Shown: positions 5,195-62,752, numbered from the stretch's first letter. The stretch is DNA of 64,000 nt from Candidatus Shapirobacteria bacterium (GCA_041665485.1 JBAYIT010000001.1:345399-409398), one strand, 5' to 3'. Notes: a model not told the origin generated them from the letters alone. A program made the numbers and translations.

Positions 5195-6686
5195 TCGGGG
5201 ATTGACAGCGGAAAAACCAAAAGGGAAAGATGCCTTGAGTAGTTTGAAATTACGGGTGGCGACAGCAGTAATGGTTGGTTTGGTGGCGGTGACGGGAATC
5301 GGGGCAACAAATACTGGTGGTTTAGATGTGTTGCGGGCGTTGGTGACACCGCAAAAAATAGAGGCAAAGGCTCCGGATGGTGTTGGTCGGACGTTGGTAA
5401 CAGAAAATAGTGGACCATGGGGTTTTGATCGGGTATATAGTGATGGAACTAAGGAAGGTGGGAGAGTTGAGGGTGGACATGAAATGCCAGAACTGATGGT
5501 AGAGGCAACAGAATTAACAGAGGAAGACAGGATGGAACAAGTGGCTGATAATGTGACTAGTATTTTGGGAGTGAATTTGTATTTAGTGGATGGGGTGCCA
5601 GTTGGCTATAGGCAGGTTGATGGGACAATCATTAAACTCAGTCAAGCGGAGATAAATGAAATAAGAACAAAAAGGGAGACGGCGATGGCTTCGGGCAATT
5701 CTACTTTGGCGTTAACTATTCGTACTGGGCCGGAGTTGGTGAACGATGGGCGAGAACGGCCGGAAATTAGACAGTGGCCAGGAGATGTAGTAAGTGATCA
5801 GGAGTTGGTGGCCAAAAAAGTAAAGATCGTAACCCCAGACGGAATGGAACTAAAACTCAAAGATTCTGCTTTTGGCCCGGGAGGTTTTTTGGAGAGATTG
5901 GTAGAGGGAAGGTTGGGTAAAAGTTTACATATTGTTGTTTTGCCGAATACAATGATGGAGATACCTGAAGATTCAAAGTATGACTTGTATCGGGGGCTGG
6001 TGGATAGTCGAGCCGGGGAGGTTAAAGCCTATCGGGATAAAGAGAGCCAGAGATTGGCAGAGGTTATTAAGCAGGGTGGACAGGCAAAATTATGGGCGGA
6101 AATTGAGTTGGCGACGATAAAGCAATTATCAAATGCGGAACTATTGAACTGGATGGTGAACAATGGAGTAGCAGAGAAACAATCTGAGCCGGCGGGAATG
6201 TTTTTGTCGCCTGGGGCAGTGAGGGCTAGGAATCCAAATTCGCCATTAGTAAAAGAGGGAGCAATAGTAGTATTTGTGGGTTGGAATGCTGATGGTGACA
6301 AGGGAATGGTGGTGCCGTTGGTGTGTGGTTCTAGTGGGGAATTTTGGGCCGAATATGGGGGTGGGATTGTTTCCAGTGGAAGTAGAACTGGAGTTTTTGA
6401 TGGTGCTACCAATTTACCAAGAGAACACAAGACTGATCCAGCACGGGCCCCGTATCAGATTGCAGAGACAACGGGTGATGTCATTGTGGCTCATGAAATG
6501 GATCATTTGAAAAAGTGGGCTGATGGAGACCCTAAAAAACCTCACACGGACGAGGGTTTGGTAGACCAAGGGGTGATTGATTATCATGAAGATGCCGGAA
6601 AAACTTTTGATGAATCTGATGGTGTAGATATGTCTAAGTATCAGTTCGCGGTTAGATTGCCAAATAATCGGGTCGTGGTTTTTTGA
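5187..6686 (+). CDS. hypothetical membrane-anchored protein with HExxH motif (possible metallopeptidase)
   Basis: N-terminal hydrophobic segment VATAVMVGLVAVTGIGA. C-terminal VAHEMDHL carries an HExxH motif. No further family assignment possible. Confidence 0.45.
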   Translation: MNDRGLTAEKPKGKDALSSLKLRVATAVMVGLVAVTGIGATNTGGLDVLRALVTPQKIEAKAPDGVGRTLVTENSGPWGFDRVYSDGTKEGGRVEGGHEMPELMVEATELTEEDRMEQVADNVTSILGVNLYLVDGVPVGYRQVDGTIIKLSQAEINEIRTKRETAMASGNSTLALTIRTGPELVNDGRERPEIRQWPGDVVSDQELVAKKVKIVTPDGMELKLKDSAFGPGGFLERLVEGRLGKSLHIVVLPNTMMEIPEDSKYDLYRGLVDSRAGEVKAYRDKESQRLAEVIKQGGQAKLWAEIELATIKQLSNAELLNWMVNNGVAEKQSEPAGMFLSPGAVRARNPNSPLVKEGAIVVFVGWNADGDKGMVVPLVCGSSGEFWAEYGGGIVSSGSRTGVFDGATNLPREHKTDPARAPYQIAETTGDVIVAHEMDHLKKWADGDPKKPHTDEGLVDQGVIDYHEDAGKTFDESDGVDMSKYQFAVRLPNNRVVVF

Positions 6687-6705
6687 TTTAGAGTAAAATG
6701 GGTGA

Positions 6706-8043
6706 ATGGGGAAAGATGATGGCGCTGATAATCCAAAACTGATAGTGGATTTTGGATTGGAGAGGAGGCAATTGACAGATGGGCCGTTGAAGAGATTGAA
6801 TAGAGTGTTAAAAATGCCGTTCAATGGGGCGGTTATAGATCTGTTTGGGGATAATGTAGCCTTGGGTGGAGGCATGGCGACGATGATTTTGGCTGACAGA
6901 CTTGATGGTGAAAGAGTTGGTTTAGGGTGGGTGGGAGAGGATATGTCGCCAATAGCGGGAGCTGTTGGTGATTGTGATTGGTTGGTAAAAAGAGATGATT
7001 GGGACGTGGAGAGAATTGTCGCCGATTTGAACGAGAGTAATAATGGTCGATTTGTGGCGATGGCAGTGGGAGTTGGGGGTGAATACTCGAGGGTGGATAT
7101 TGAGGCTAATGGAGTAATTGTGGCGTCGGTAAGAAATATTGCTTTGGTGGCGGAATATGAAAGAAAGTTAAGAGAATCTTTAGGGGAAGAGGTGGAAGAA
7201 GTGCCTGATTGGGTTTTGGATCTGGCGGGAGCTCCTTTTAAAAATTGGGCGACGATTGAGAAGAGCGGGGAAGGGTGGGAGGTGTTGGGATTCAAAAGAG
7301 ATGGTGGTTTAAATCTGGAAAGAAACGAGTTTTCGACAACTAATGTTGTGAATTTTGAAAAATTATTGCGTGCTGGAAAGCCGGAGGCTTATTTGGTGGC
7401 GGGTGATTTTTTGGCGATGATGGGGAGATTGTTCACATTGAAGTGTTATGGGGCAGGTTTTGGAGATCGGGCTGAAGACATGCAGAAGATAATGGCTGAA
7501 TTTGGACAATTTTTCCAACTGGCGGAAGGATTTAAAAAAAAGCAATACAACTCATCTAGATCAAGATTGGCGGAAAGGATGGCATTGGGTTTGGCTTTTG
7601 ATGTCGATGCTGGCAGGCAAATGCTGATTAAAACTGGCTTAATGGCTGTATTTTCAGAAAAATTGGCGGGAAAAATTAGTGAACTTAGTAACCTCGAGAA
7701 TCAAGCAAAGTTTTCTAATGCATTCGATCTAGTAAATTATTTTGACAATGGATTGAAGATAAGAGATATAGGAAGATTGTTGGTAGTGTTGGGAATAGGT
7801 TGTGGTTTAAACCGAGAAGAATATCTTGAAGTAATGGAGGAAATGAGACAATATTGGAACCCGAGGCCGATTGATAAAGTGGCAAAATGGGGTGGCCGAG
7901 GTGGGTTTGACGTGAGCTTGAGAGAGAGAGGTTTTAGTGAAGTGTTTGATGATGAACAGGTAAGAAGTTGGCAAAGATTGGAAACCAGAAAACCCGAAGA
8001 GACGGAGAAGTTGGTTGGATGGTTGGTTGATGTAGTAAAATGA
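6706..8043 (+). CDS. hypothetical protein
   Basis: 445-aa ORF. Its stop overlaps the start of the next gene (ATGA at 8040-8043). Confidence 0.5.
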   Translation: MGKDDGADNPKLIVDFGLERRQLTDGPLKRLNRVLKMPFNGAVIDLFGDNVALGGGMATMILADRLDGERVGLGWVGEDMSPIAGAVGDCDWLVKRDDWDVERIVADLNESNNGRFVAMAVGVGGEYSRVDIEANGVIVASVRNIALVAEYERKLRESLGEEVEEVPDWVLDLAGAPFKNWATIEKSGEGWEVLGFKRDGGLNLERNEFSTTNVVNFEKLLRAGKPEAYLVAGDFLAMMGRLFTLKCYGAGFGDRAEDMQKIMAEFGQFFQLAEGFKKKQYNSSRSRLAERMALGLAFDVDAGRQMLIKTGLMAVFSEKLAGKISELSNLENQAKFSNAFDLVNYFDNGLKIRDIGRLLVVLGIGCGLNREEYLEVMEEMRQYWNPRPIDKVAKWGGRGGFDVSLRERGFSEVFDDEQVRSWQRLETRKPEETEKLVGWLVDVVK

Positions 8044-28123: not shown

Positions 28124-28207
28124 ACGTCATCGCGAGGCCGAAGGCCGTGGCGATCTCGTTTGGGATTGCTTCGTCCTCCGAAAGCTTTCGGAGTCCTCGC
28201 AATGACG
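28124..28207. repeat. REP/MITE-like palindromic element, copy 1 (acgtcatcgcgagg...cctcgcaatgacg)
   Basis: 13-bp terminal inverted repeats enclose ggccgaaggccgtggcgatctc..gggattgcttcg plus an internal hairpin. Other copies at 37624-37727 (reverse orientation, with insert), 55577-55648, 56005-56081, and a minimal fused form at 62735-62752. Confidence 0.8.
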
Positions 28208-44421: not shown

Positions 44422-46068
44422 ATGGGTAATACAGATAGAGTGGGAGTGGGTGATGTACAGCGTTTTCTTGTTAGTCCTAGTACTCAAGGAGAGTTGGATG
44501 CGATGGCGACGGCAGCCTATGTGGCTCCACCACGAGAAGGAATTAGCATGATGGACCAAGAGTCGCCACTGAAACCCCCTTTAAGGTTTCAAGCTGATGG
44601 AAGAGGCGATTGGGTTTTGGTAAGCAGATCGTTGACTGTTCAAGACTCGGTATTGTTGGCAAAGTTTGACGATGATGGAGAAATTTATTATCGTTTGGCC
44701 AGTGGAACTAAGTTTCGCCAGGAGAACAATATTTCAGATAACGCGATTAGAGGCAGAATGAATAGTAGATATCAGATTGATAGCGCTGGGGGTGAAGTTT
44801 CAAATTGGACATATGGTGGAGTGTTTAATAATAAGGTGGTGTTGTTTTGTGCTGATATTTCAAGACCAGTAGAAGAAAGAGTAACTAGTCGGACAATGAC
44901 CATTGGCGATTTTCTGGCGCTTAAGGAGGCGCAAAGAAAGGGGGGTGTGATTGAAGGTTCGGTGAAACCGGGAGTAGTTATAAATGAAGCAGTTGTTAGG
45001 CCACAACTAGATTTTTACAGACCCAATGGATCGCCAGCAGTGGGTAACTTGTTTAGGTGTGAAAAGGCACTTTTACTACCCGATAATCATGGAGGTTTAC
45101 CTGGGTCGCCTTTTGGAAGGATGTTGGATGGAGCTACGGGGGGTGAGTTAGTAATGGTTCAAGAAGTGCCAGACAGAGGGGCTGAGATTGCGAGAGCGAT
45201 GCAAGAGACAATGGAGATGGTTAAATCTGGCAGGGCGGTTTATTTGATTGGTAACCATGATCCAATGATGATGATGGCGATGAGTGGAGACGAGAAGGCC
45301 CTTTTTAACTGGTTGCATCCAAAATATGGCCACGGCGACGCAACTATTAGGAGTTGTGGATACAATCTTCCGGTTGGTTTTGGAGATGATTTTGAAGAGT
45401 TTCAAAAAACGATCGTACAGATATCTTCAGAATTAAAAACAGACCCTCGGTTTCAGATTTTAAGAGAATGGGTTAAGTTTGTGGAAGATTATGGCAGAGT
45501 TTTTGTTAACATAAATGGTCATTTTGCTGTACATGCAGGATTGCCAGTTGATAAGGCGGGAAACTTGGTAGAAATGACTAAGCTTAAGAAAGATAGTTGC
45601 TTCAAAGGGAAGGTGGGCGTGGCTCTGTTGTTGGAAATGCAGATAGCATTGAGAAAAAAGGATATGGTGGCGATTGGTGAGATGTATGGGGCTAGTGCTG
45701 ATGATGGTGGTTTGAACCCTCTTTGGATTAGAGAGCCCTGGTTTGCCGTAGCCGAAAACCCGGGGTTAGTACATAAAGTTAGAGAGCAACTGAATGAACA
45801 GATGGCTCAGAGGTATCCTAATGATCCGAGGGCTTTGGTAGAGGTGGTTGTTTTGGGCCATTCACCTTGGAGGGGGGATGAGAGGTGGAAATCGCACTCT
45901 ATTTGTCCGAGATTAGTTTTTATTGATGTTGGTTTTGCTGATGATGGGCATGAAAGAGTGTTGAAATTGGAGGTAAATCCAAGTAGTCCATCGACAGTAT
46001 CGGCGACTTATTCGGATCCTTCAGGAAGGGATCCGGTGATGATGGTGGCGAATTATGATTTGCATTAG
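44422..46068 (+). CDS. hypothetical protein with PPP-family metallophosphoesterase-like motifs
   Basis: DNHGG, EVPDRG, YLIGNHD, VHAG and VVVLGHSP loosely follow the GDxHG/GDxxDRG/GNH[DE]/HGG/GH motif order of PPP phosphatases. Has an approximately 200-aa N-terminal extension. Confidence 0.4.
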   Translation: MGNTDRVGVGDVQRFLVSPSTQGELDAMATAAYVAPPREGISMMDQESPLKPPLRFQADGRGDWVLVSRSLTVQDSVLLAKFDDDGEIYYRLASGTKFRQENNISDNAIRGRMNSRYQIDSAGGEVSNWTYGGVFNNKVVLFCADISRPVEERVTSRTMTIGDFLALKEAQRKGGVIEGSVKPGVVINEAVVRPQLDFYRPNGSPAVGNLFRCEKALLLPDNHGGLPGSPFGRMLDGATGGELVMVQEVPDRGAEIARAMQETMEMVKSGRAVYLIGNHDPMMMMAMSGDEKALFNWLHPKYGHGDATIRSCGYNLPVGFGDDFEEFQKTIVQISSELKTDPRFQILREWVKFVEDYGRVFVNINGHFAVHAGLPVDKAGNLVEMTKLKKDSCFKGKVGVALLLEMQIALRKKDMVAIGEMYGASADDGGLNPLWIREPWFAVAENPGLVHKVREQLNEQMAQRYPNDPRALVEVVVLGHSPWRGDERWKSHSICPRLVFIDVGFADDGHERVLKLEVNPSSPSTVSATYSDPSGRDPVMMVANYDLH

Positions 46069-46073
46069 TTGAG

Positions 46074-47483
46074 ATGGTTGCCACAGACAAGAGAGAGCGA
46101 GGGAGTAAAAACGAGAGAACTTTGAGTTCTCTGGTGACAACTTGCGGGGTGACAGGTGGTTGGGTGTTGGCAGAAATACCGGGAATGGGGGTGGCAAGAA
46201 ATATTTTTAATGGAGTTTCGAGTGTAGAACAGGTTATGGGGATGGTGTTGACCGACGGAAGAAAATTTGTAAGTGATGGCCAAGGTGGTGTTTGTTATTC
46301 TGATGAGGCAGGATACACTAGCTTAGTTGTTCAATTAGCTTCAAACTTTGCCAGTACAGAAGCGGTACTTAGAGTTGGGGAGACAGTGGTGGATAATTGG
46401 CAGAGAGCTGGGCGAGTGGCTAGTGGCGAATCTTATAAAGCCGGATTGACAACAATGATGTCGGTGTTGGCTGATGATGTTGATCGGGCTCGGTTAGATT
46501 TGGTGGTTGAATCTCTGGAAAGGAGTAGAGATCCAATTGACGGAAAAAGAATTGTAGACGAGAAAGCCTTAGATGGAATTAAACAAGGAAAAATAAAATT
46601 TAAACCACACTTTATTGAGGGAACAAGTAGACGTGGAGTGAGTGTCTTTGTGTGTAAAACAGGACTTTTGGGAAGAGAAATTGTGGGAGAGAAAGAGTTA
46701 AAGAAGATCGCCACTTCTCTTGAAGAGGCGTCTCACTTATTTGGCTTGGATGAACCCGATAAAGGTAGCCCGATTATGTACGTTGTAGTGCCACAATGGT
46801 TTTTAGGAAAATATGCGTATGTAGACGAAGATAGAATGGTATTTCTGGGGGCAAGTTTGGGCGACTCTATTTCATTTGAAAATGTTTTGAAAAAGGAAAT
46901 CTGTGATCATGAAAATGTTCATCTGGTGTTAAGTAGGATATTTGGAGGACATCCACCAATACCGGATTTAGTTGAAGGGGTGGCAGTATGGGTTCAACGT
47001 TATATGGCTGGTTTGAGATACGAGAAGGCAAGAAACTGGAATAATTTTTTAGGAAAGGCGGTGGAAAAATTAAAAAGTGAAACAGGGGTTAGCAATGTTT
47101 CCGGAACTAAGATATTGAAAGATGAGGGTAGGGGGAATGCTTATGCTAATGCTTTTAAGATGGATGTGTTGGTGGGAGTGGTGGTAGCAATGTTTCCTAA
47201 TGATTGGGTAAAGATGATCAAAAAAATGTATTCTTATGGAAATTTTAGTCAATTTAATTCGAGAAAGGGCCAGACATTAATTGATAGTGGGGTGGTAGTT
47301 AGCGGGATAAGACAGAGAGATATATTGTTTGAATTGTTAGCTATGTCGATTTCTGACGTTGATATAAGCCAAAAAAGAGGATGGTTAAGATATTTAAATG
47401 AGAAACAAGTTCCGCCGCAGGATGATATTTTACCCAAATTTGTGGAAGCAATTATGGGAGAACTACTAGAGAAGAAAAAGTAA
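46074..47483 (+). CDS. hypothetical protein with HExxH motif
   Basis: 469-aa ORF. CDHENVHLVL contains HENVH. No family recognised. Confidence 0.45.
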   Translation: MVATDKRERGSKNERTLSSLVTTCGVTGGWVLAEIPGMGVARNIFNGVSSVEQVMGMVLTDGRKFVSDGQGGVCYSDEAGYTSLVVQLASNFASTEAVLRVGETVVDNWQRAGRVASGESYKAGLTTMMSVLADDVDRARLDLVVESLERSRDPIDGKRIVDEKALDGIKQGKIKFKPHFIEGTSRRGVSVFVCKTGLLGREIVGEKELKKIATSLEEASHLFGLDEPDKGSPIMYVVVPQWFLGKYAYVDEDRMVFLGASLGDSISFENVLKKEICDHENVHLVLSRIFGGHPPIPDLVEGVAVWVQRYMAGLRYEKARNWNNFLGKAVEKLKSETGVSNVSGTKILKDEGRGNAYANAFKMDVLVGVVVAMFPNDWVKMIKKMYSYGNFSQFNSRKGQTLIDSGVVVSGIRQRDILFELLAMSISDVDISQKRGWLRYLNEKQVPPQDDILPKFVEAIMGELLEKKK

Positions 47484-50949: not shown

Positions 50950-52938
50950 ATGAAGAATTTATTGATAGTCGAGTCGCCGACAAAGGCGAGAACAATTTCC
51001 AAGTACTTGGGCAAGGATTATGAAGTGGTGGCAACGGTGGGACATTTGCGGGATTTGCCAAAGAATAAGATGGCGATTGATATTAAGAACAATTTTGAAC
51101 CGGAATATGTGGTGGATTCGGAAAAAAAGAAAATAGTTGATGGTTTACTTTCGGCAGCTAAACGAGCGGAGAGAATTATATTGGCAACTGATCCGGATCG
51201 AGAAGGAGAAGCGATAGCGTTTCATGTAAAATTTCTAATTTCCAATAACCAATTTCCAAACAAATCACAAAAAACAAGCTCAAAAAAACAAATTTCGAGG
51301 ATTACGTTTCATGAAATTACTAAGGAGGCGGTGGAAGAAGCGCTGAAAGGGGCGAGGGAGGTGGATATGAATATGGTAAATGCCCAGCAGGGGAGGCGGG
51401 TGTTGGATCGATTGGTGGGTTATTCGTTATCGCCGGTGTTGTGGCGGAAAGTACGCCGAGGTTTGTCGGCGGGGAGAGTGCAGTCGGTGGCCGTCAGACT
51501 AATTGCGGAGCGGGAAAAGGAGATAGAAAGTTTTACTAAATCAAAATTTTTCCGGCTTAAAGCCGTGCTGGGGAAGAAAAAGTTTGAAGCAGAAATGACG
51601 AGATGGAAGGGAGAAAGAACAGAAATAACAACCAAAATAAAGTTATTTGATGGAATTTACAGCTTTTCGAAATCTATTTTTGAAAACAAAATTAAGGTAG
51701 AGGAGATAAAAGAGATTTTAGCGAGAGGGAAATTTGAAGTAACCGACGTTAAAATGAGCGAAACACATCGCCATCCATTACCGCCGTTAACAACGTCGAA
51801 AATGCAACAGGTGGCGGCCAGGCGATTTGGCTGGAGTGGTAAGCAGACAATGCGGATTGCCCAAAGACTGTACGAACAGGGGTTAATTACTTATCATCGG
51901 ACCGATGCTGTGAACATTTCAGAAAAAGCCATAGAAGATTTTCGCAGATATATAAAGGAGCGGATCGGGGCGGAGTATGTAGCGGAAAAAGAAAGGCATT
52001 TTAAGAATACGTCAAAGAACGCCCAAGAAGCCCATGAAGCCATTAGGCCAACCAGCGCTTTTTCCGATGTAGAAGAAATTGATAGTAAAGAAAAGAAGCT
52101 TTATGAATTGATTTGGAAGAGAGCAGTGGCCACCCAGGCTTCAAGTGCGGTTTTGGACACGACTAAAATAACTTTAAAAAATAATGAGGGAGAATTTAAT
52201 AGTGGCGGAGTGGTGGTGAAGTTCCCTGGATTTTTAAAAATTACTGAAGATAAAACCGAAGAGCAGGAATTGCCAAAATTGGCGGTGGGGGAGACTTTGG
52301 ATGGCGAAGTGGCGGTGGAGGAGCTGGAAACCAGCCCACCTCCCCGTTATAGCGATGCCTCGCTGGTGTCGTCTTTGGAAAAGCAGGGAATAGGCCGACC
52401 TAGCACCTATGCCCCAATTATTAGCACAATTCTCGATCGGCAATATGTAGAGAGAGAGGAGGGGAGGTTTAGGCCGACTGGATTAGGCACGGCGGTAAAT
52501 GAATTTTTGGTGGCTAATTTTGCCAGAGAGGTGGATTTGCCGTTTACGGCCGGGATGGAGGAGGAGCTGGATGAGGTGGCTCTGGGCAAAGTTGATTGGC
52601 GAAAAATGATAGGTAATTTTTGGGAAAAGTTTGAAAAAGAGGTGGTGCTGGCGTCGGATCAGGCGGATAGAGTTAGGGTGGCGGTGGAGAAGACAGGGGA
52701 GAAGTGTCCGGAGTGCAAGGTTGGTGACTTGGTGATAAGGCTAGGAAGATTTGGCAAGTTTATTTCCTGTGATCGGTTTCCGGGATGTAAATATACGGGA
52801 AAACTAGTGGAAAAGGCGGGATTTAACTGCCCGTTGTGTGGCGGGGAGGGAGTGGTTAAGAAAACCCGCACCGGCCGTAAATTTTACGGCTGTGCTAACT
52901 ACCCTAATTGCAAATGGGCGGGGTGGAAAAAGCCGTAA
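50950..52938 (+). CDS. topA: DNA topoisomerase I
   Basis: TOPRIM N-terminus LLIVESPTKARTISKYLG, active-site region LITYHRTD, and C-terminal C4 zinc ribbons (CPECK..C, CPLCGG..C). Low-complexity insert ISNNQFPNKSQKTSSKKQIS. Confidence 0.9.
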   Translation: MKNLLIVESPTKARTISKYLGKDYEVVATVGHLRDLPKNKMAIDIKNNFEPEYVVDSEKKKIVDGLLSAAKRAERIILATDPDREGEAIAFHVKFLISNNQFPNKSQKTSSKKQISRITFHEITKEAVEEALKGAREVDMNMVNAQQGRRVLDRLVGYSLSPVLWRKVRRGLSAGRVQSVAVRLIAEREKEIESFTKSKFFRLKAVLGKKKFEAEMTRWKGERTEITTKIKLFDGIYSFSKSIFENKIKVEEIKEILARGKFEVTDVKMSETHRHPLPPLTTSKMQQVAARRFGWSGKQTMRIAQRLYEQGLITYHRTDAVNISEKAIEDFRRYIKERIGAEYVAEKERHFKNTSKNAQEAHEAIRPTSAFSDVEEIDSKEKKLYELIWKRAVATQASSAVLDTTKITLKNNEGEFNSGGVVVKFPGFLKITEDKTEEQELPKLAVGETLDGEVAVEELETSPPPRYSDASLVSSLEKQGIGRPSTYAPIISTILDRQYVEREEGRFRPTGLGTAVNEFLVANFAREVDLPFTAGMEEELDEVALGKVDWRKMIGNFWEKFEKEVVLASDQADRVRVAVEKTGEKCPECKVGDLVIRLGRFGKFISCDRFPGCKYTGKLVEKAGFNCPLCGGEGVVKKTRTGRKFYGCANYPNCKWAGWKKP

Positions 52939-52944
52939 GGATTT

Positions 52945-53271
52945 TTAGATCGAAGCTTGGTTTGTGGCCTCGCAAGTGCCGTTTATAATCTCGTAAGCCT
53001 TAGCCAAAGTTATTGTTTGGTCACATTGACGAGTTTTAGGACATTGTGCGCAGATAGCATTAGTTAATCCTGCGAGCGGAGTGACTTCTGTGCCATCTGG
53101 CATTGTTACTTTTTCTAAGGCAATCCTTCTTGCCTCTTTCTTTGCTTGACAGATATCAGGTTGTTTAGGGTCTATCGGAAAAACTCTCTCTCCTTTGTCG
53201 TCCTCTTTCCAAAGAATAGTGTTTGCTGTCCTAATTAATTCTCTTTTTGTTGCCATGTCGGTATTATACAA
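52945..53271 (-). CDS. hypothetical protein
   Basis: 108-aa ORF downstream of the ATPase gene and small ORFs on the same strand. Four Cys. No family recognised. Confidence 0.4.
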   Translation of the reverse strand: MYNTDMATKRELIRTANTILWKEDDKGERVFPIDPKQPDICQAKKEARRIALEKVTMPDGTEVTPLAGLTNAICAQCPKTRQCDQTITLAKAYEIINGTCEATNQASI

Positions 53272-53463
53272 AATTTATTATGAGATTCTAGGGGTTAGAT
53301 TTGGGAGCCGGAACGACCAACTAAAATATCAGTAGGTTTGATTTCTCCAATGATATTTAAATTGGTTCTGGATGGTTCTGCTCCTTTTGTTCCAGGTTTC
53401 ATTTCTAAACCAGTAGGACTTTTAAAAAATTCTGGTGATTTCATATTTGATAAAAATTAATAA

Positions 53464-53619
53464 TTAAATTTTATTGAGTTGAGATAACCGAGTGGTTAAG
53501 GCTTCGTAGACCCTTGCTTGGAGTTCGATAGGGGAAGCCTCGATTATTTTTTCGAGTGATGGGCCTTTTTCAACTGGTTTATGTAATTCTGGCTTGAAGC
53601 CGATTGGTGATCTTTCCAT
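53464..53619 (-). CDS. hypothetical small protein (51 aa)
   Basis: Hand-translated ATG..TAA ORF MERSPIGFKPELHKPVEKGPSLEKIIEASPIELQARVYEALTTRLSQLNKI. Not in supplied track (below 60 aa). Confidence 0.2.
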   Translation of the reverse strand: MERSPIGFKPELHKPVEKGPSLEKIIEASPIELQARVYEALTTRLSQLNKI

Positions 53620-53686
53620 AATCTTATAATAATGATTATTAATTAAATATAGGCTGGCCTATAAGAGATGTCAAGGGGGGAATTTG

Positions 53687-53727
53687 GATCTTAGATCTTG
53701 GATCTTAGTTCTTAGATTCTAGATTAC
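53687..53727. repeat. gatctta heptamer tandem array
   Basis: ggatcttagatcttggatcttagttcttagattctagattac at the 3' end of the ATPase gene. Same family at 60048-60080, 42445-42476 and 41270-41305. Confidence 0.8.
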
Positions 53728-55943
53728 TTATGCTTGCCCCAGCGTTCTTGGGAAGTGCGGATGAGCTTATCGTGGCCTTGGTTTTTACAGTCAAGTAGAG
53801 GCAGAGTGGTGGCGTAAAATGGTTCTTTGGTTTCGGAGTCGATCGATAATTTACAAATGATTTGATATTTGCCCAGTTTGACTAGGTCATCGGCGGGGAA
53901 CTTCTCGCCAAATTCTTTGCTTAAGATATAAGCGTCTTGATTGCCAACGACAAAGGACATAAGTGAGCCGACGTTGCCAAAAATAGCGTCTTGGATGGGG
54001 CGCTCAAGCTGATTCATATATTGGTTGGCAACAATGAGGTTGAGTTTAAATTTGCGGGCTTCAGAGAGTATTTTAATAAAGGCCTCGGTGGCAAAATTTT
54101 GGAATTCGTCAACGTAGAGATAGAAGTCTGATCGGTCGGCTTGTGTTTGAAATACCCGATTCATGGCCGAAAGTTGAATTTGGGTGATCAACATGGCGCC
54201 AAGAAGGGCAGAATTATCTTCGCCGAGTTTGCCATTGGACAGGTCGGCGATCAAGATTTTCTTTTGATCCATGATATCTTGAATGCGGACTTTAGATTTG
54301 GGGTGGGCAATAGTGTTGCGGATATTAGTGGAGGAAATAAATTGGCCGACTTTGTTCAAAATAGGAGCGATGGCTTCGTTTTGGAATTTGGCATCCATTT
54401 GATCAAATTCATTAATCCAGAAGTTTTTAAGAGTTTGATTGGCAAGGAGAGGAACGATTTTTTGGCGATAAGATTTGGAGGTGAGAATTTCAACGATATG
54501 AGTGAGATCGGAGCCGGGAACGTTGACGAGAGTTAAAACGGCGTTGCGCAAAATATGCTCGAGGCGTGGCCCCCAGGAGGTGGCGCCATAAAGTTTTTTG
54601 AAAATGGAAATAACGCCGGAGGCAACTAATTCTTTTTGGGAATCGTTTTCAGCCTCCAAAACATTTAAGGGGTAAACATAATCGGGATCGGCGGGGTTGA
54701 AATAACAACAATCGTTGATGCGGGAGGAGGGGATGTAATCAAGAATAGTTTGGCAAAGGTCGCCGTGGGGGTCGATGACGGCTACGCCCCGGCCTTTGCG
54801 AATATCGTCGATGGCCATGTTGGCGATGAGAGTGGTTTTACCGGTGCCGGATTTACCGACAATGTAGGTGTGGCGGCGGCGGTCTTCACCTTCTTTAATG
54901 CCAAAAATAGCTTCTTTATTGCGGAATTCGGTTTTGGCAAAAACAGTCACGTTTTGACGTTCTTCTTCGGAAAGGTCGGCAACGACGGGTAAGTTTTCGG
55001 GCGGATCAGCATACAGCTTTTTGCCCCAAGCAATGTTGGGGATCTTGGTTTTTTCTCCGGGAAAGTGCCAAAGGACTGACAATTCTTCAGTGTTTAAAAT
55101 TTGATGATTAAGAGAAGAAGTAAAAGCGCGGTTAAGAATCGATTTGAGTAATTTCTTTTTGGTGAAAAAACCGGGTTGATTAATTTTAATAAAATTGCCA
55201 CGAGGGTTGGTATAAATGCCAAAGGAAGAGGTAAAAGCAGATAGAAGGCCGGAATTATTGGTTAAAAAATTAATTTGGGTGAGGAGGCCGGGGAATTGGA
55301 TTTTGGTTTCGAAAACGGCCTTATCGGGGTGATTTTGGCGAAAATTGCGGGATGAGTCGACCATGATGCCATTTTGAATGATGGAGGTGATGGGGTATTG
55401 CCAATTGTTGGGGGCGGAAGTGATTAAAATTTGATAAAGAAAAAAATCGGTGGGGGAGAGGGAGCGGGAAAGGGGGGAGAGGAGGGAATTAAGGGGATCA
55501 GTGTCCTTAAAATCGTGAATGGATTTTATTGGATAATTGTCTGATTTTGATAAGGACAATTGACTAAAAAATAGCCCGTCATCGCGAGGCCGAAGGCCGT
55601 GGCGATCTCCTTGGGATTGCTTCGTCGCTTCGCTTCTCGCAATGACGTCGGAAGCAAGGTAATCATTAATTTCCAAAGTAATAGCGGTGGGGTACTGGGC
55701 TAGGATTTGGGAGCGAAAGAATTCGGCTGAATCGGCAGGCGTTGCCACCATAAAATAAAGCTGGCCTTGTTTGAGAACGATTTCTAAAGAAATGGCGGTG
55801 TGCTTTTTGCCAAAGATGCGGTCAAAAAACGAGCCTGTGCCGGCTTGAGAAAAATTAGAGAGGAGGGAGGACATGGATTCGAGAGTGAATTCGTTGGTTT
55901 GAGGAAGACGGATGTTGAAGAGTTTCCAGGGAGACATAACCAA
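53724..55943 (-). CDS. P-loop NTPase of the TraG/TraD/VirD4-like (DUF87/AAA-like) conjugation/secretion ATPase type
   Basis: Walker A IVGKSGTGKTTL and Walker B YLYVDEFQNF in a C-terminal domain of about 400 aa. No N-terminal TM helices. Carries a complete REP-like element in-frame (55577-55648, encoding SDVIARSEATKQSQGDRHGLRPRDD). Confidence 0.5.
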   Translation of the reverse strand: MVMSPWKLFNIRLPQTNEFTLESMSSLLSNFSQAGTGSFFDRIFGKKHTAISLEIVLKQGQLYFMVATPADSAEFFRSQILAQYPTAITLEINDYLASDVIARSEATKQSQGDRHGLRPRDDGLFFSQLSLSKSDNYPIKSIHDFKDTDPLNSLLSPLSRSLSPTDFFLYQILITSAPNNWQYPITSIIQNGIMVDSSRNFRQNHPDKAVFETKIQFPGLLTQINFLTNNSGLLSAFTSSFGIYTNPRGNFIKINQPGFFTKKKLLKSILNRAFTSSLNHQILNTEELSVLWHFPGEKTKIPNIAWGKKLYADPPENLPVVADLSEEERQNVTVFAKTEFRNKEAIFGIKEGEDRRRHTYIVGKSGTGKTTLIANMAIDDIRKGRGVAVIDPHGDLCQTILDYIPSSRINDCCYFNPADPDYVYPLNVLEAENDSQKELVASGVISIFKKLYGATSWGPRLEHILRNAVLTLVNVPGSDLTHIVEILTSKSYRQKIVPLLANQTLKNFWINEFDQMDAKFQNEAIAPILNKVGQFISSTNIRNTIAHPKSKVRIQDIMDQKKILIADLSNGKLGEDNSALLGAMLITQIQLSAMNRVFQTQADRSDFYLYVDEFQNFATEAFIKILSEARKFKLNLIVANQYMNQLERPIQDAIFGNVGSLMSFVVGNQDAYILSKEFGEKFPADDLVKLGKYQIICKLSIDSETKEPFYATTLPLLDCKNQGHDKLIRTSQERWGKHK
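55577..55648. repeat. REP/MITE-like palindromic element, copy 3 (inside ATPase coding sequence, in-frame)
   Basis: cgtcatcgcgaggccgaaggccgtggcgatctccttgggattgcttcgtcgcttcgcttctcgcaatgacg. Confidence 0.8.
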
Positions 55944-56004
55944 TTATAGAACAGTTATCAGTTAAGAGTTACGAGTTACGAGTTGATTTTTAATTTAAAG
56001 ACAT

Positions 56005-56081
56005 ACGTCATCGCGAGGCCGAAGGCCGTGGCGATCTCGTTCGGGATTGCTTCTCCGCTAGCTGGCGGATCGCAATGACGT
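56005..56081. repeat. REP/MITE-like palindromic element, copy 4 (intergenic)
   Basis: acgtcatcgcgaggccgaaggccgtggcgatctcgttcgggattgcttctccgctagctggcggatcgcaatgacgt. Preceded by an agttacg array (55953-55986). Confidence 0.8.
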
Positions 56082-56210
56082 TAAATTTGTTTTTGTCTTA
56101 TGGGATAAAAGAAACTACATACGTAGTAGGTAGAAAAAAGACCACTTGCTACTTGAAAATGATTTTATAAGAGTGTATCTTATAGGGCAATTTACTAGTT
56201 ATTATCTTTT

Positions 56211-56441
56211 ATGCCTAGTGGGCGGGTAATGAATAATCAAGTAGTAGCTGCGATTGCAATCGACGAGTTGAGGTGTTTGGAAGTTGTTGATGGGGGTGAT
56301 GGTTCTAACGTTCCAGGTTTTCAGGTAATGGAGAGGTTCACGAGGACATTAAAAACGGATGAGAGTCCTCATGCAAACAGGAGGTTGGATGCCCCAGATG
56401 ATAGAGGTTACACCCCTTCTCACGATATTAGAAGAAGTTAA
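56211..56441 (+). CDS. hypothetical protein (weak)
   Basis: 76-aa ORF. No features. Confidence 0.25.
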   Translation: MPSGRVMNNQVVAAIAIDELRCLEVVDGGDGSNVPGFQVMERFTRTLKTDESPHANRRLDAPDDRGYTPSHDIRRS

Positions 56442-56552
56442 TTTAACCAGACAGGATCCGAAGAAAAAACACTGGTAATCAGTAATTGGTAATCAGTAAC
56501 TGGTAACTAGAAACAAGAAAAAAGTTAAAAATTTAATTTAATCCGCCAGTGG

Positions 56553-56801
56553 GTGGACAAGAAAAAAATGGCGCCGAGAAAGGGTAGGGGCGAAAGAGAA
56601 GGACAGATGGCTTTTGGTTATACTGTTCCGAGCTTGGCTCCAAAACAACCGGAAGGCTTGCCTGGTAAACCTCCAAAACCAGCAATTGGAGGGTTGCCAC
56701 TTATTAGAGAGAATGTTGGGCATTATGAGTTTGGAGATACTGGGGGTGGAGAGCCAGAGTATGTTTGGGTGAGAGGAGGGGAGAATGAATGGACTGATTG
56801 A
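56553..56801 (+). CDS. hypothetical Gly/Pro-rich protein
   Basis: 82-aa ORF. Overlaps the next ORF by 17 nt. Confidence 0.3.
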   Translation: MDKKKMAPRKGRGEREGQMAFGYTVPSLAPKQPEGLPGKPPKPAIGGLPLIRENVGHYEFGDTGGGEPEYVWVRGGENEWTD

Positions 56802-57543
56802 GGGAAGGGATGGAGGGAGTTGTGGAGGATATACTGATCAGTTGATTGGTGGGGCGAGGATAAATGGATTGAGACTTGGTGATTCTTTGTCCGTGTTGGG
56901 GGATGGAGGTGGTTTAGCCAGAATTAGGGGAGATTTAATGTTTGACATATTGGCGGGTCATAGAGGATTTGGAAAAACGGAAGAGATAAAAAGAAATGTC
57001 ACTGAAGGCGAGGCGAAATGGCTGGCGGTGCTGGCGGAGACGTTGGATTTGGTGATGGGAAGAGTTTCTGGAGAGACGATTTTTTTGGCAAGTCAGAGAA
57101 CAGTGGGGGGAGATAAAGAAATTGGTTTGGAAGTTGGCTGGGTTGGTGGATCTTTAAATTTATTGCTTATGCGTAGTGGAAGATCGGTTGGTGGGGTAGT
57201 AGCTAAGGTCGACAGCGAAAACTCGGTGAGTTTTGGAACTACTAATGGCAGTGGAATGATGGTGGATTGGGATCTGAGAGTTTGGGAGGTGGTTAAGCAG
57301 TTATTACCGGAAGCGACGGGGAATGATGCGCAAGCGATAGTGCGAAGGGGTGCAAGATCGGAAAGTTATGTTTGGAGCGATTTGAGAGATAAAATGATTA
57401 GGTGGCAGGATTTTGATGGTTATCCATGGAGTGATGTGTTTGGTGTTATGCGATATGGGAACGAATTTGTCGGCAGTCGTTTTGGTGTTGGTTGTGGTGT
57501 TAAAAAAACTAAAATATCTGATTTGAGTTTGAGGGTTAATTGA
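56785..57543 (+). CDS. hypothetical Gly/Val/Arg-rich protein
   Basis: 252-aa ORF. No family recognised. Confidence 0.4.
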   Translation: MNGLIEGRDGGSCGGYTDQLIGGARINGLRLGDSLSVLGDGGGLARIRGDLMFDILAGHRGFGKTEEIKRNVTEGEAKWLAVLAETLDLVMGRVSGETIFLASQRTVGGDKEIGLEVGWVGGSLNLLLMRSGRSVGGVVAKVDSENSVSFGTTNGSGMMVDWDLRVWEVVKQLLPEATGNDAQAIVRRGARSESYVWSDLRDKMIRWQDFDGYPWSDVFGVMRYGNEFVGSRFGVGCGVKKTKISDLSLRVN

Positions 57544-57588
57544 CATTATGATGAAAATTGATGCAGTTTGTGATATATTTGCCTAAAT

Positions 57589-58776
57589 ATGGCAGGGGTG
57601 AATCCGATTGAAGCGAGAAATGGAGATGAAGTGGTTCCGTTTGGGTTGGCGCAGATTGACAGGTTGGTGACAAGATTAGTGGGTACAGAAAATTGTAGAG
57701 GTGGAGGTGTTGTTTTGAGTGGAGTAGCAAATGAATGTGGTGAAGTGGCTATGATGAGGGCGTGGCGTGGTAGTTTGGAGGCAGGGGCCGGGTTAATTCA
57801 GGTAATGACTAGAGCTGGTACTGTTTATTGTGTTGAGGCAGAACGGGACGGGAGACATCGGGTGTCGGTTAACGGGATGGTTGAGTCAGACGAGAATAAG
57901 GCCTGGCTGGGAAAGCAACTATCTGTTTTTTTTGGGAGGGCTGATTTGGAGGTAATGAAAATTGATGAAAGTGGACAAGAGGTGAAATCTGGGGGCAGGT
58001 TTGAATGGAGGCCGGTAGTGGTCGCTGAAATGCCGGTGGTGAGAAACCACCCCACAACTTCAGAAAGATCTTTACCTATGGTAGATGGGAGAACAGGTGA
58101 GCGGGCTGATGTTGAATATGTGGCTTTAGTAAGAGATACCTTGGCGGCATGGAACACTCAAATTAAAGGGGTGATTGGGCATGCGGTTTTTGGGGATGAT
58201 GGCGAAAAAGGGGTGATAAGGTGCTATTGGAAAGAAGAAGGGCGTCTTGGGGTGGAAGTGATGGGTGGTGATGGAACTATACATATTTGCACTTTAGTAG
58301 TTGATGGTAATACGGTTAGGGGAGTTGATGTTGAAGGTGAGGATGTAAAAAGTGTAGAATTGTCGCTTATTGTTGGAAAATTACGTCAGGTGGTTGATAC
58401 AGGTACTTTGTGTCATTATGCTGGCAATGTGGCAACCGAGACTATTGCGGTGAGTTTTGGTGGTAAAGTTGCCAACTCAGATGTAGTACTGGTGAGAGCA
58501 GTGGAAAGTCGGTTAGGTGCTAGTGGGGGCGGGAATATGTCTGGACGTATTACTCTGGAGGATGGTTCTGTGGTTGAGGCGAAGTTGGTTGCAATGATGG
58601 GTGGTGTTGGTATGGAATTAAAGTTTGGAGGGGACGTGTATTGTGTTTATGTAAGGGACGGAATACTCAGTGTCCAAAATGAGTACGAGCGTAGTTTGGC
58701 GGGGGGGAGAGAAGGTGAGGAATTGCGTGTAAGAGTGCTAAATTGGGTTCGAGAAATAGTAAATAGACAGAGTTAA
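57589..58776 (+). CDS. hypothetical Gly/Val-rich protein
   Basis: 395-aa ORF. No family recognised. Confidence 0.45.
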   Translation: MAGVNPIEARNGDEVVPFGLAQIDRLVTRLVGTENCRGGGVVLSGVANECGEVAMMRAWRGSLEAGAGLIQVMTRAGTVYCVEAERDGRHRVSVNGMVESDENKAWLGKQLSVFFGRADLEVMKIDESGQEVKSGGRFEWRPVVVAEMPVVRNHPTTSERSLPMVDGRTGERADVEYVALVRDTLAAWNTQIKGVIGHAVFGDDGEKGVIRCYWKEEGRLGVEVMGGDGTIHICTLVVDGNTVRGVDVEGEDVKSVELSLIVGKLRQVVDTGTLCHYAGNVATETIAVSFGGKVANSDVVLVRAVESRLGASGGGNMSGRITLEDGSVVEAKLVAMMGGVGMELKFGGDVYCVYVRDGILSVQNEYERSLAGGREGEELRVRVLNWVREIVNRQS

Positions 58777-58815
58777 TTTGACATTATAGGATGGCGGGGG
58801 TAGAATACTGGGCAA

Positions 58816-59037
58816 ATGATAGGAGCTATCGCTTCTCATTCTCATGAAGCTTGGTTTTATGGTACACATGATCCGAACTTGTCTTGGAGACGGCGTCTGC
58901 AGGAGGCAAAAAAAGAACCTTTTGATTTGGTAAGGTGTTTTAGAGAAAATTTAGAATGCAGATTTGGGGTGATTGGTGTTGGAGTTGGTTTTGGGTCGTT
59001 GTTGTGTGCTTGTGTTCTTCGTGGAGTACCGCAATAA
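58816..59037 (+). CDS. hypothetical small protein (weak)
   Basis: 73-aa ORF with hydrophobic Cys-containing C-terminus. Confidence 0.25.
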   Translation: MIGAIASHSHEAWFYGTHDPNLSWRRRLQEAKKEPFDLVRCFRENLECRFGVIGVGVGFGSLLCACVLRGVPQ

Positions 59038-59135: not shown

Positions 59136-60047
59136 ATGGCAAAAAAAATTGTTAAGACAAAAACGGTTAATCGAACCGGTAAAAAAATCGTTAAGAAAGC
59201 GTTGGTAATTAAAGAAAAAAAAGAAAAGGTGTTGACGGCGGAGAAGATTAAGTCTTTGAACGAGAAAACTTTAGGAACAAGGAAAGAGGTACAAGGTACA
59301 AGGAAAGAGGAATTGGAAATTAAGGCAAAAGATGAGAAGAAGATACTTGAGGACAAAAAATATAATTTGACGGTGGGGCTGAAGGATTTATTGGCGGCAG
59401 GATGCCACCTGGGGCATAAAGTCAGTAAAACTAACCCCAAAGCCAAGGGAAATCTTTACAAAGCAATTGACGGAATTCAGGTGTTTGATTTGGTTAAAAC
59501 GATGGCCGGGCTAGAGGCGGCCTGCAATTTTGTCTACAACTCCAAGAGGAACGGTAAACAGATTGTGTTGGTGGGAACTAAGAGACAAGCTAAAGAAGTG
59601 GTTAAGAGAGTGGCGCTGGACGCCGGAGTGGCCTACATTACCAACCGATGGCTGGGAGGAACGATAACTAATTGGGACCAGATTAGAAAAACGATCAAGC
59701 GTTATTGGGATTGGAAAGAAGGCTTGGAGCAAAATAAATTCACCAATAAAACCAAAAGAGAGCTTTTGGAAATGAGTAAAGAATTAGTTCGGATTGAGAA
59801 AAATATCGGTGGATTGGCTAAGTTGGATAAACTATTTGATGTGATGTTTGTGGTTGATGCCGGTGGAGAAAAGACGGCGGTAAAAGAAGCAAGTTTGACT
59901 AAAGTGAAGATAGTGGGAATGGTGGACACTGACACTGATCCGGCTAAAGTTGACTTTCCGATTCCGGCCAATGATGACAATGTTAAATCAGTGACTTTAA
60001 TAGTTGAGGAAATTGGGAAGGCTATTAAGGCGGCAGGGGTCAAATAG
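59136..60047 (+). CDS. rpsB: 30S ribosomal protein S2 with about 90-aa Lys-rich N-terminal extension
   Basis: Core LLAAGCHLGHKVSKTNPKAKGNLY, QIVLVGTKRQAKEVVKRVALDAGVAYITNRWLGGTITNW and FVVDAGGEKTAVKEA match S2. The extension contains a direct duplication (LGTRKEVQGTRKEE). Confidence 0.85.
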   Translation: MAKKIVKTKTVNRTGKKIVKKALVIKEKKEKVLTAEKIKSLNEKTLGTRKEVQGTRKEELEIKAKDEKKILEDKKYNLTVGLKDLLAAGCHLGHKVSKTNPKAKGNLYKAIDGIQVFDLVKTMAGLEAACNFVYNSKRNGKQIVLVGTKRQAKEVVKRVALDAGVAYITNRWLGGTITNWDQIRKTIKRYWDWKEGLEQNKFTNKTKRELLEMSKELVRIEKNIGGLAKLDKLFDVMFVVDAGGEKTAVKEASLTKVKIVGMVDTDTDPAKVDFPIPANDDNVKSVTLIVEEIGKAIKAAGVK

Positions 60048-61217: not shown

Positions 61218-61258
61218 CATTGGTAATTGGTAATTGGTAATCTGTAATCTGTGATAGG
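61218..61258. repeat. ggtaat/tctgtaa heptamer array (left flank of four-helix-bundle gene)
   Basis: attggtaattggtaattggtaatctgtaatctgtgatagg. Inverted counterpart at 61624-61662 (gattaccaattaccaattactgattactgattactaatc). Confidence 0.8.
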
Positions 61259-61625
61259 AAATAAATTGGTTGATTTTTATGATCTAGAAGCATGGAAGGA
61301 AGGACATAAGTTGGCTCTGTTGGTGTATGGAATGGTTAGTAAATTACCATCAGACGAAAAATATGGTTTGTCAGATCAACTAAGAAGAGCTTCAGCTTCG
61401 GTAACGGCAAATATTGCCGAGGGTTTTGGTAGGTTTCATTTTAATGACAAAATACACTTTTTCTATTTATCGAGAGGTTCGGTGAAAGAAGTTCAGAGTT
61501 TTTTATTGCTAGGGAGAGATTTGAAGTATTTGAGTGTAGTAGATGTTAATATTGTTTGGACCCAATCAAAGTCGGCTGAAAAATTAATTAACGGACTAAT
61601 AAGGTCAACAGAAAAACAAAAATGA
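61251..61625 (+). CDS. four-helix-bundle protein (TIGR02436, 23S rRNA IVS protein / Avd-like)
   Basis: GTG start. YDLEAWKEGHKLALLVY...LSDQLRRASASVTANIAEGFGRF...FLLL matches the family signature. Confidence 0.8.
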   Translation: MIGNKLVDFYDLEAWKEGHKLALLVYGMVSKLPSDEKYGLSDQLRRASASVTANIAEGFGRFHFNDKIHFFYLSRGSVKEVQSFLLLGRDLKYLSVVDVNIVWTQSKSAEKLINGLIRSTEKQK

Positions 61626-61662
61626 TTACCAATTACCAATTACTGATTACTGATTACTAATC
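61624..61662. repeat. inverted heptamer array (right flank of four-helix-bundle gene)
   Basis: Reverse complement pairs with 61218-61258 over gattaccaattaccaatta. Confidence 0.8.
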
Positions 61663-62734: not shown

Positions 62735-62752
62735 ACGTCATCGCAATGACGT
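62735..62752. repeat. minimal REP-like palindrome (acgtcatcgcaatgacgt), fused terminal repeats without internal region
   Basis: 7-bp stem and 4-nt loop identical to the termini of the long copies. Lies between rseP and the convergent GH gene. Confidence 0.6.

Follow-up and report, generated by a model that had tools for sequence, protein, structure and literature searches.

A transmembrane-less coupling-protein-type ATPase amid hypervariable gene slots in Candidatus Shapirobacteria

What is an ATPase of the conjugation-associated type doing between two housekeeping loci of an ultra-small bacterium, and do the unfamiliar genes on either side of it belong to it? We addressed this question in a 64,000-nucleotide (64-kb) stretch of DNA, referred to in full as the window, from a Candidatus Shapirobacteria bacterium (GCA_041665485.1 JBAYIT010000001.1:345399-409398), a member of the Microgenomates within the Candidate Phyla Radiation (CPR, or Patescibacteria). 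By an exact protein match, the window was assigned to a contig of 411 kb in a metagenome-assembled genome (ENA ERZ27249449). A reading made before any database search, here called the sequence-only reading, had singled out positions 52945 to 59037, where a gene for a 739-aa ATPase on the minus strand is followed by small open reading frames (ORFs) and faces five divergent ORFs on the plus strand, as a candidate for an undescribed transfer or secretion system or for the remnant of an integrated element. We consider it likely that the locus is best explained as a whole by a conserved orphan core gene of the type IV coupling protein (T4CP) type, devoid of transmembrane (TM) segments, which stands amid strain-specific hypervariable slots. 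The descriptive part of this account is offered with high confidence, and any specific substrate of the ATPase with low confidence.

A member of the VirD4/TraD/TrwB branch without a membrane anchor

The ATPase gene (53724-55943, minus strand) was read as an ORF of 739 codons; the public annotation begins two residues later (737 aa), and NCBI names the product [quoted passage not shown] It encodes an N-terminal soluble α/β domain (aa 1-340; 54924-55943, minus strand), assigned to DUF8128 in precomputed Pfam data, and a motor domain (aa 341-739; 53727-54923, minus strand). Both nucleotide-binding motifs named in the sequence-only reading were found, namely, Walker A as GKSGTGKT (aa 363-370; nt 54834-54857) and Walker B as YVDEFQNF (aa 610-617; nt 54093-54116), and most of their residues were invariant when 31 homologues were compared. 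The absence of an N-terminal TM anchor was likewise borne out, as no TM segment was found in the protein, its top Kyte-Doolittle value over 19 residues being 1.22 relative to a cut-off of 1.6. The structure of the N-terminal part was predicted as well: an AlphaFold2 (AF2) model built from 31 homologues (predicted local distance difference test score [pLDDT], 74) comprises the soluble α/β domain followed by a RecA-like domain, and a helical bundle (aa 434-544) forms an all-α insertion between the strand that carries Walker A and the one that carries Walker B.

Profile searches of the ATPase yielded Pfam matches above cut-off for TrwB_AAD_bind (28.1 bits versus 20.5, over aa 355-648) and for DUF87 (26.9 bits versus 23.2), the latter being common to ATPases of type IV secretion systems (T4SSs) too. 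TraG-D_C scored 20.5 bits, below its cut-off of 22, and neither T4SS-DNA_transf (PF02534) nor FtsK_SpoIIIE nor any of the VirB4 profiles considered below was matched. The top NCBIfam match was SXT_TraD (E = 6e-13), and all NCBIfam TraD/VirD4 models stayed far under their equivalog cut-offs. The closest solved structure by sequence was TrwB (identity, ~14%), to which the AF2 model was aligned by Foldseek (1gl6) with a TM-score of 0.58, normalized to TrwB. TrwB of R388, VirD4, and TraD share with the ATPase a RecA-like nucleotide-binding domain with an all-α domain. In contrast to the ATPase, they possess an N-terminal TM domain, which is replaced in the ATPase by ~340 soluble residues.

For the predicted family placement, the decisive comparison was plain BLAST against annotated replicons. 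An 812-aa protein from an Embleya plasmid (E = 5e-61), which carries T4SS-DNA_transf, TrwB_AAD_bind, and TraG-D_C domains, is encoded between a VirB4-like ATPase gene and a relaxase gene, with PrgI also adjacent. An 886-aa DUF87 protein from Bacillus subtilis plasmid NZ_CP032854 aligned over aa 39-733 of the ATPase (E = 2e-34); its gene lies directly upstream of that of a Replic_Relax relaxase, in an operon that also contains TcpE and an AAA_10 VirB4. Like the ATPase, the Bacillus protein consists of two domains, including DUF8128 at the N-terminus, lacks any TM-like window or predicted TM helix, and exhibits the Walker motifs and the helical insertion. It differs in being only 23% identical and in that its operon encodes a relaxase, VirB4/AAA_10, and TcpE among other transfer genes, all of them missing from our locus. 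These plasmid homologues indicate that the anchor-less two-domain architecture represents a subfamily of monoderm coupling proteins.

More generally, the closest relatives outside the CPR are coupling ATPases from Bacillus and actinomycete conjugation operons, together with phage proteins. PHROG 5156 (function unknown) matched the ATPase at 2e-62, with homology extending over aa 262-736. Phage G gp156, whose gene adjoins that of the VirB4-like gp155, and SPO1 gp27.4, a further Bacillus-phage homologue, differ from the ATPase in being viral and only 20-25% identical, and gp156 has TM-like segments. By eye, the N-terminus of gp156 appears to display the same motif as the N-domain of the ATPase, the BLAST match itself starting at query aa 262. 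No papers turned up when the literature was searched for "DUF8128." There is precedent for coupling proteins that lack TM segments and rely on a partner for anchoring, such as TraJ/TraI of pIP501 (PMC12857230); TraJ is likened here to the ATPase as a functional analogue only, without a comparison of sequences.

Taken together, the TrwB_AAD_bind match above cut-off, the TraD model as best NCBIfam match, and the coupling-ATPase homologues on plasmids uphold the VirD4/TraG/TraD-type classification that had been proposed from the motifs. The ATPase is a member of the VirD4/TraD/TrwB branch of FtsK-HerA ATPases, and in this protein the DUF8128 N-domain takes the place of the membrane anchor.

A core gene fixed between topA and rpsB

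We scanned one genome per species for related loci and retrieved 52, nearly all from Shapirobacteria. The ATPase gene lies at the same site and in the same orientation across these loci. It is convergent with topA in 45 of the 52 and divergent from rpsB-tsf-frr in 29; PBP2 and mreB are located beyond topA, and dprA is also found in the topA neighborhood. In the window, topA (50950-52938, plus strand) bounds the variable slot downstream of the ATPase, and rpsB (59136-60047, plus strand), followed by tsf and frr, bounds the one upstream.

We compared sequence identities to the window's proteins in the 15 genomes in which all compared genes were complete. The median was 83.6% for the motor domain, versus 62.5% for RpsB, 63.2% for TopA, 65.1% for elongation factor Ts (EF-Ts; Tsf), and 71.0% for ribosome recycling factor (Frr). 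Among Shapirobacteria, the N-domain of the ATPase shows 58-63% identity. The search retrieved more than 5600 homologues; the best 120 are 70-76% identical, save two 100% copies of one and the same protein, and those of the 120 that bear names are nearly all from Shapirobacteria or Microgenomates. The fixed place of the gene and an identity above that of its housekeeping neighbors show the ATPase gene to be a vertically inherited, strongly constrained core gene of Shapirobacteria, whose site between topA and rpsB is on the C-rich strand and whose motor domain is under very strong purifying selection. In this respect it differs from the plasmid coupling ATPases, which are mobile and fast evolving.

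None of the genes expected of a transfer apparatus accompanies it. Relaxase, VirB4, VirB6, pilin, and integrase genes were absent from the ORFs of the locus and from ten large ORFs of the window that were scanned, and the slots of the relatives, where homologues of the ATPase might have stood beside such genes, contained no relaxase, VirB4, pilin, or integrase gene either. No PrgI/VirB3 gene was detected near the ATPase, and neither a partner nuclease of the HerA type (NurA/Sir2/DUF4297) nor a transposase was found in or beside the region. The two proposals of the sequence-only reading therefore fared poorly. A secretion or transfer module is unsupported, given the conserved topA and rpsB context, the lack of transfer genes, and neighbors that are not conserved, and so is the remnant of an integrated element, given the same site in 52 loci and a conservation above that of housekeeping neighbors. 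A conserved chromosomal context is an outcome that the sequence-only reading had itself listed as refuting.

Hypervariable slots, strand bias, and repeats

Across the relatives, the gap between the ATPase gene and topA ranges from 7 to 2782 bp and that between the ATPase gene and rpsB from 190 to 9172 bp, and in some relatives more than 10 kb passes without an rpsB being found. The tsf-rpsB and PBP-mreB junctions are tight (within 80 bp). The ATPase-topA gap measures 7-65 bp in 12 of 45 relatives, and both slots are smaller than ~500 bp in six. Singletons make up 302 of the 376 slot ORFs. Pfam domains were identified in ~10 of the 55 larger slot ORFs (M23 peptidase, PIN toxins, Avd-like 23S_rRNA_IVP, and AAA_14/DUF4143), and none of these 55 matched a T4SS part. 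Thus, variable gaps and singletons mark the flanks as hypervariable slots around a fixed gene rather than as a conserved gene set. Both junctions beside the ATPase are such slots, and they behave like insertion hotspots.

The window conforms to this pattern. Its eight neighboring ORFs had no counterpart by tblastn or phmmer in 53 related loci; scans of these ORFs against Pfam, NCBIfam (four ORFs), and PADLOC/PHROG (seven ORFs) gave no usable match, and BLAST among them revealed neither internal repeats nor paralogy. With none of the eight detectably conserved in any relative, the small and divergent genes do not qualify as the partners of the ATPase that they had been taken for.

A bigger, partly conserved envelope set was observed in the rpsB-ATPase slot of some relatives (L002, 1615-7580; L015, 1847-7149; and L014, 1436-7701). 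It comprises an M23 peptidase (623-747 aa, with TM segments), proteins of 362-365 aa that have 2-4 TM helices, one 9-TM protein, and soluble proteins of 527/528 aa that lack a Pfam domain. This set, which is absent from the window, could be a module linked to the ATPase.

In the window, the slot between the ATPase gene and rpsB holds the five plus-strand ORFs, of 76 aa (56211-56441), 82 aa (56553-56801; annotated as 77 aa from 56568), 252 aa (56785-57543), 395 aa (57589-58776), and 73 aa (58816-59037; with a TM segment at the C-terminus); the 252- and 395-aa ORFs are ORFans. The Gly/Val/Arg richness ascribed to this block is real: the three residues together account for 34.5 and 37.5% of the 252- and 395-aa ORFs, respectively, versus 24.5% in the other plus-strand genes (a sum of pooled per-residue values) and 13.7% in the ATPase. 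The GC skew lies between +0.16 and +0.59 in every 1-kb bin of the window and tracks the DNA strand, not gene orientation, being +0.42 for plus-strand and -0.35 for minus-strand genes. Plus-strand proteins are rich in Gly, Val, Glu, and Arg, and minus-strand proteins in Leu, Ser, Thr, and Pro (e.g., Val, 9.7 versus 3.8%; Gly, 9.4 versus 5.5%). The skew bias was present in every Shapirobacteria locus examined (-0.19 to -0.41 in the orientation of the ATPase, which lies on the C-rich strand in all loci); the corresponding value of a Levyibacteria locus was -0.04.

The 252- and 395-aa ORFs exhibit an overall skew of 0.56-0.62, similar to that of the third codon positions of plus-strand genes (0.58); they retain a G1 > G2 codon periodicity, and their skew at codon position 2 is raised. 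The Gly/Val/Arg richness is thus explained by an extreme strand bias of G over C acting on weakly constrained sequence. We read the composition of the orphan ORFs as having drifted to the mutational equilibrium of the strand, which speaks against a recent acquisition from beyond the lineage. The region does not stand out from the remainder of the window in GC content (0.43-0.46), and its skew is that of the host, so the composition lends nothing to a horizontal origin; on account of the native GC content and native sign of the skew, we rejected the idea that the block is foreign DNA.

A rival explanation holds that the five plus-strand ORFs are non-functional, being either decaying pseudogenes or non-coding sequence left open by chance. 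Their composition at the neutral level of the strand bias and the raised skew at position 2 are consistent with it, and so is the lack of homologues and domains. Word-indexed searches with the 252- and 395-aa ORFs against 5.8e9 proteins returned the queries alone, and when 1.8e9 representatives were scanned in full by HMMER for the 395-aa ORF, a single match was added, a 2221-aa adhesin, which we rejected as a homologue, the repeat being matched 11 times and the match judged to be driven by repeats or composition. Scans against Pfam, PADLOC, and PHROG gave no recognizable domain in the divergent ORFs, as the sequence-only reading had stated, and a single-sequence AF2 model of the 395-aa ORF was uninformative (pLDDT, 39).

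Against this explanation stands the length of the open frames. The longest stop-free stretch spans 400 codons, whereas 2000 first-order Markov simulations of the region produced a median of 81 and a maximum of 193, which indicates that the long ORFs of 395 and 252 codons are not due to chance. Moreover, the G1 > G2 periodicity is that of real plus-strand genes, the five ORFs cover 83% of the slot on a single strand with short spacers, and the 73-aa ORF is preceded by a promoter-like TTGACA-17-TAGAAT (58778-58806, plus strand), a near-consensus σ70-like site. We therefore regard the non-functionality of the whole block as unlikely; the short ORFs of 73-82 aa could be spurious. The orphan ORFs are probably young or weakly constrained resident genes, neither imported cargo nor conserved partners of the ATPase.

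Large plus-strand ORFs without a Pfam domain above threshold were also observed at 44422-47483 and 5187-8043 (548, 469, 499, 445, and 425 aa), indicating that this genome has many orphan or CPR-specific genes and that the locus is not peculiar in this respect. Scans with Rfam (gathering thresholds) and for tRNAs detected an RNA gene neither inside nor beside the region.

The sequence-only reading had also noted that the region between the ATPase and the divergent ORFs is packed with repeats resembling repetitive extragenic palindromic (REP) elements and with heptamer repeats. Both kinds are real, and neither is peculiar to the locus, as copies occur elsewhere in the window. The palindromic element, which resembles REPs and miniature inverted-repeat transposable elements, is 71-83 nt long with the ends CGTCATCGCGAGG...CGCAATGACG. 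One copy (55577-55647) lies in frame within a variable loop of the ATPase, where it encodes ...SEATKQSQGDRHGLRPRDDG..., a second (56006-56080) lies in the divergent intergenic region, and a third was found at 28125-28207, with a partial right end near 62751. The two copies at the locus form strong hairpins (z = -3.6 and -4.3). Tandem arrays comprise the heptamer AGTTACG (3.6 copies; 55960-55984), a 14-nt/7-nt array (56471-56506), and, directly after the stop codon of the ATPase gene, ~6 heptamer-like units of TCTAAGA/TCCAAGA (53680-53722, read on the minus strand). GGTAATY heptamer arrays similar to those of the locus recur at five other places in the window, the sites being 61222-61240 (plus strand), 61626-61658 (minus strand), 17630, 29558, and 43260, in addition to the one at 56474 in the locus. 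The heptamer arrays are a genome-wide class of intergenic repeat, and, given the scatter of the same repeats through the window, we rejected the repeats as the borders of an element.

As a side observation, inverted GGTAATY arrays bracket a gene of the 23S_rRNA_IVP family (Avd-like four-helix bundle; 61251-61625), and this family also fills the ATPase-topA slot in three relatives (L028, L034, and L037). The bracketing arrays and the recurrence of the family in these slots hint at a small mobile cassette.

The loop that harbors the palindromic element (aa ~101-124) is the sole hypervariable loop of the otherwise highly conserved ATPase. Palindromic-element inserts are found in frame in this loop in at least 12 lineages (e.g., L006, L007, L012, L013, L015, L016, L032, L038, and L051) and belong to several unrelated types, such as SEAKQS...PRND, FSEHSE...GSEHRKN, and LQGGMPEGQGG. 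The folding energy of the inserts is -0.2 to -0.57 kcal/mol per nt, versus ~0 for most loops free of inserts. Rickettsia palindromic elements are known as selfish DNA residing in frame in protein genes. Like the elements described here, they are short palindromes inserted in frame in a surface loop of an essential-looking protein, with further intergenic copies; they differ in element sequence and in host phylum, and, unlike in the Rickettsia case, several unrelated element types enter the same loop in different lineages of Shapirobacteria.

Possible roles of the ATPase and its flanks

How would an orphan coupling-type ATPase act in these cells? Most likely, it would form a ring NTPase and pass its substrate, DNA or protein, on to envelope machinery whose genes lie elsewhere, the candidate being the relaxase-less T4SS described for Patescibacteria; alternatively, it may have been exapted as a soluble nucleic-acid translocase. 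As a coupling protein, it would be expected to act as a hexameric, substrate-stimulated NTPase recruiting substrates to a T4SS. The dprA/topA neighborhood points to DNA handling, which is suggestive without being evidence.

Orphan homologues of this kind are abundant: a survey of Patescibacteria counted 5,713 T4CP homologues in 2,918 genomes, just 148 of them near virB4 (Quinonero-Coronel et al. 2025, PMC12102498). According to the same work, relaxases are almost absent in Patescibacteria, exaptation of t4cp is "not ruled out," and the relaxase-less T4SS is often located near dnaA in Microgenomatia (PMC12102498). The orphan homologues of that survey resemble our ATPase in being chromosomal, far from virB4, without a relaxase, and without an assigned role (PMC12102498). 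The ATPase is such an orphan Patescibacteria T4CP homologue, of a kind already reported; NCBI has a name for it, and Pfam includes it under DUF8128. To our knowledge, the survey does not describe the topA/rpsB context, the conservation above that of ribosomal proteins, or the TM-less DUF8128 layout, nor, as far as we know, the hotspot of in-frame palindromic elements or the two flanking variable slots.

Several points weigh against the account of a T4CP-type core gene amid variable slots. No partner machinery is visible in the 64-kb window, so that docking onto a T4SS is pure conjecture, and the lack of a TM anchor disfavors a role as a classical T4CP. A full-length structure search places VirB4 over T4CPs, as detailed below. 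The model of the 395-aa ORF is uninformative, and expression of the orphan ORFs is a prediction made from sequence only. Finally, the t4cp homologue of the Saccharibacterium Ca. S. epibionticum is non-essential for epibiotic growth according to transposon sequencing cited in a passage of PMC12102498. This result sits oddly with the conservation of the ATPase; the two proteins may not be orthologues.

One alternative would go beyond our account and make the protein a domesticated TM-less coupling ATPase that is indispensable across the whole CPR class and drives a non-conjugative process. DNA or nucleotide acquisition, chromosome handling, or the delivery of hypervariable small proteins to the host are possible processes, and the slots would serve as a cradle for new genes under strand-specific mutation bias. 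We judge this quite unlikely.

Another possibility is a delivery locus made up of the ATPase gene and the genes on either side of it, in which the motor recruits diversifying small proteins and feeds them to a T4SS, to be exported to the host. Small ORFs co-directional with the ATPase gene do recur downstream of it in the relatives. A small-protein family beginning with "MSxETIGYKP..." (55-82 aa) occurs in at least 13 loci, and loosely defined CxxC-x(3-9)-C-x(5-30)-C proteins of 60-110 aa occur in 12 loci; in the 11 related loci whose small ORFs carry the loose motif of the window's Cys protein, 13 of the 16 such ORFs are downstream of the ATPase gene. The ORF beside topA carries a basic, Pro-rich tail in several relatives (by inspection), a feature that calls to mind the positively charged signals at the C-termini of T4SS substrates, and the divergent slot of some relatives contains the membrane proteins and M23 peptidase described above.

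The small ORFs of the window itself fit these families poorly. All ORFs listed by the sequence-only reading are present except for a possible 38-aa ORF, which was not confirmed and which we take to correspond to a 49-aa ORF (53295-53444, minus strand) of doubtful reality, without relatives and uncalled in the public annotation. The 51-aa ORF (53464-53619, minus strand) starts with MERSPIGFKPE in a position matching that of the ETIGYKP family. Searched with a hidden Markov model of this family (13 members), it scored E = 0.35 among 376 ORFs, fifth of the sub-threshold matches, the ranks just above it being other ORFs in the same position. The 108-aa ORF with five Cys residues (52945-53271, minus strand; annotated as 103 aa from 53256) contains CxxC-x6-C-x17-C (CAQCPKTRQC-x17-C) and showed no sequence-level homology to the four-Cys ORFs of the relatives. 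Membership of the two ORFs in these families is possible but unproven, since neither has significant similarity to them, and basic tails were found in none of the small ORFs of the window.

The 51-aa ORF is preceded by its own promoter-like site, TTGACA-17-TATATT (53674-53646, minus strand; near-consensus σ70-like), which also speaks against a delivery locus. In addition, 6 nt separate a TATAAT box from the annotated start codon (ATG) of the 103-aa Cys protein (53256-53290, minus strand), suggesting a leaderless transcript. The downstream slot of the window holds two or three tiny fast-evolving genes, each apparently with its own promoter. The ATPase is equally conserved in the 12 of 45 relatives with an ATPase-topA gap of 7-65 bp, which indicates that the small genes are dispensable for its function, and no T4SS structural gene was identified in any slot. 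A delivery locus is accordingly improbable in our estimation.

We give equally little credence to the idea that the protein is a VirB4-type ATPase of the inner-membrane complex of a T4SS rather than a coupling protein. The best full-length Foldseek match of the AF2 model was indeed TrwK/VirB4 of R388 (E = 2e-10; ~870 aligned columns), followed by HerA, DotL, and TrwB, and a soluble N-domain preceding a C-terminal ATPase is a VirB4-like layout. However, the VirB4 matches had TM-scores of ~0.3 and a root-mean-square deviation of 14 Å, the ATPase gave no Pfam match to AAA_10, CagE_TrbE_VirB, or TraC, and TIGR00929 (VirB4) scored 18.3 bits against a cut-off of 643. Furthermore, the plasmid and phage G homologues are accompanied by a separate VirB4-like ATPase (AAA_10/TraG P-loop), the plasmid homologues hold the T4CP position beside the relaxase, and no VirB3/PrgI gene is adjacent to the ATPase gene.

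Finally, an integrated mobile or defense island, be it a HerA/MADS-like ATPase with effectors or a decayed conjugative element, is highly improbable, because the weak PADLOC matches of the ATPase (mad8, 2e-14; HerA, 2e-7), the strain-specific ORFans in its flanks, the toxin-antitoxin and PIN genes of relatives, and the repeats at the borders are set against a position, orientation, and housekeeping flanks that are constant in 52 genomes, a conservation exceeding that of RpsB and EF-Ts, the absence of integrase, transposase, relaxase, nuclease partner, and tRNA in or beside the region, a GC content as in the rest of the window, and the host's own skew.

We therefore return to the conserved T4CP-type core gene. 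As the neighboring "partners" are strain-specific filler, there is no new secretion or mobile module here: the postulated module is nonexistent as a conserved unit. The most interesting by-products of the analysis are the conservation of the ATPase, the class-wide strand bias, the hypervariable slots, and the loop that captures palindromic elements in frame. CPR bacteria depend on host cells, a lifestyle for which few systems have been shown to be essential, their T4SS-like genes being one of them, and orphan coupling-protein homologues are abundant in these bacteria. One such orphan family is fixed in a housekeeping neighborhood and conserved beyond ribosomal protein S2, EF-Ts, and topoisomerase I, which argues for a central role of the family rather than for conjugation and makes it a good target for genetics in cultivable Patescibacteria.

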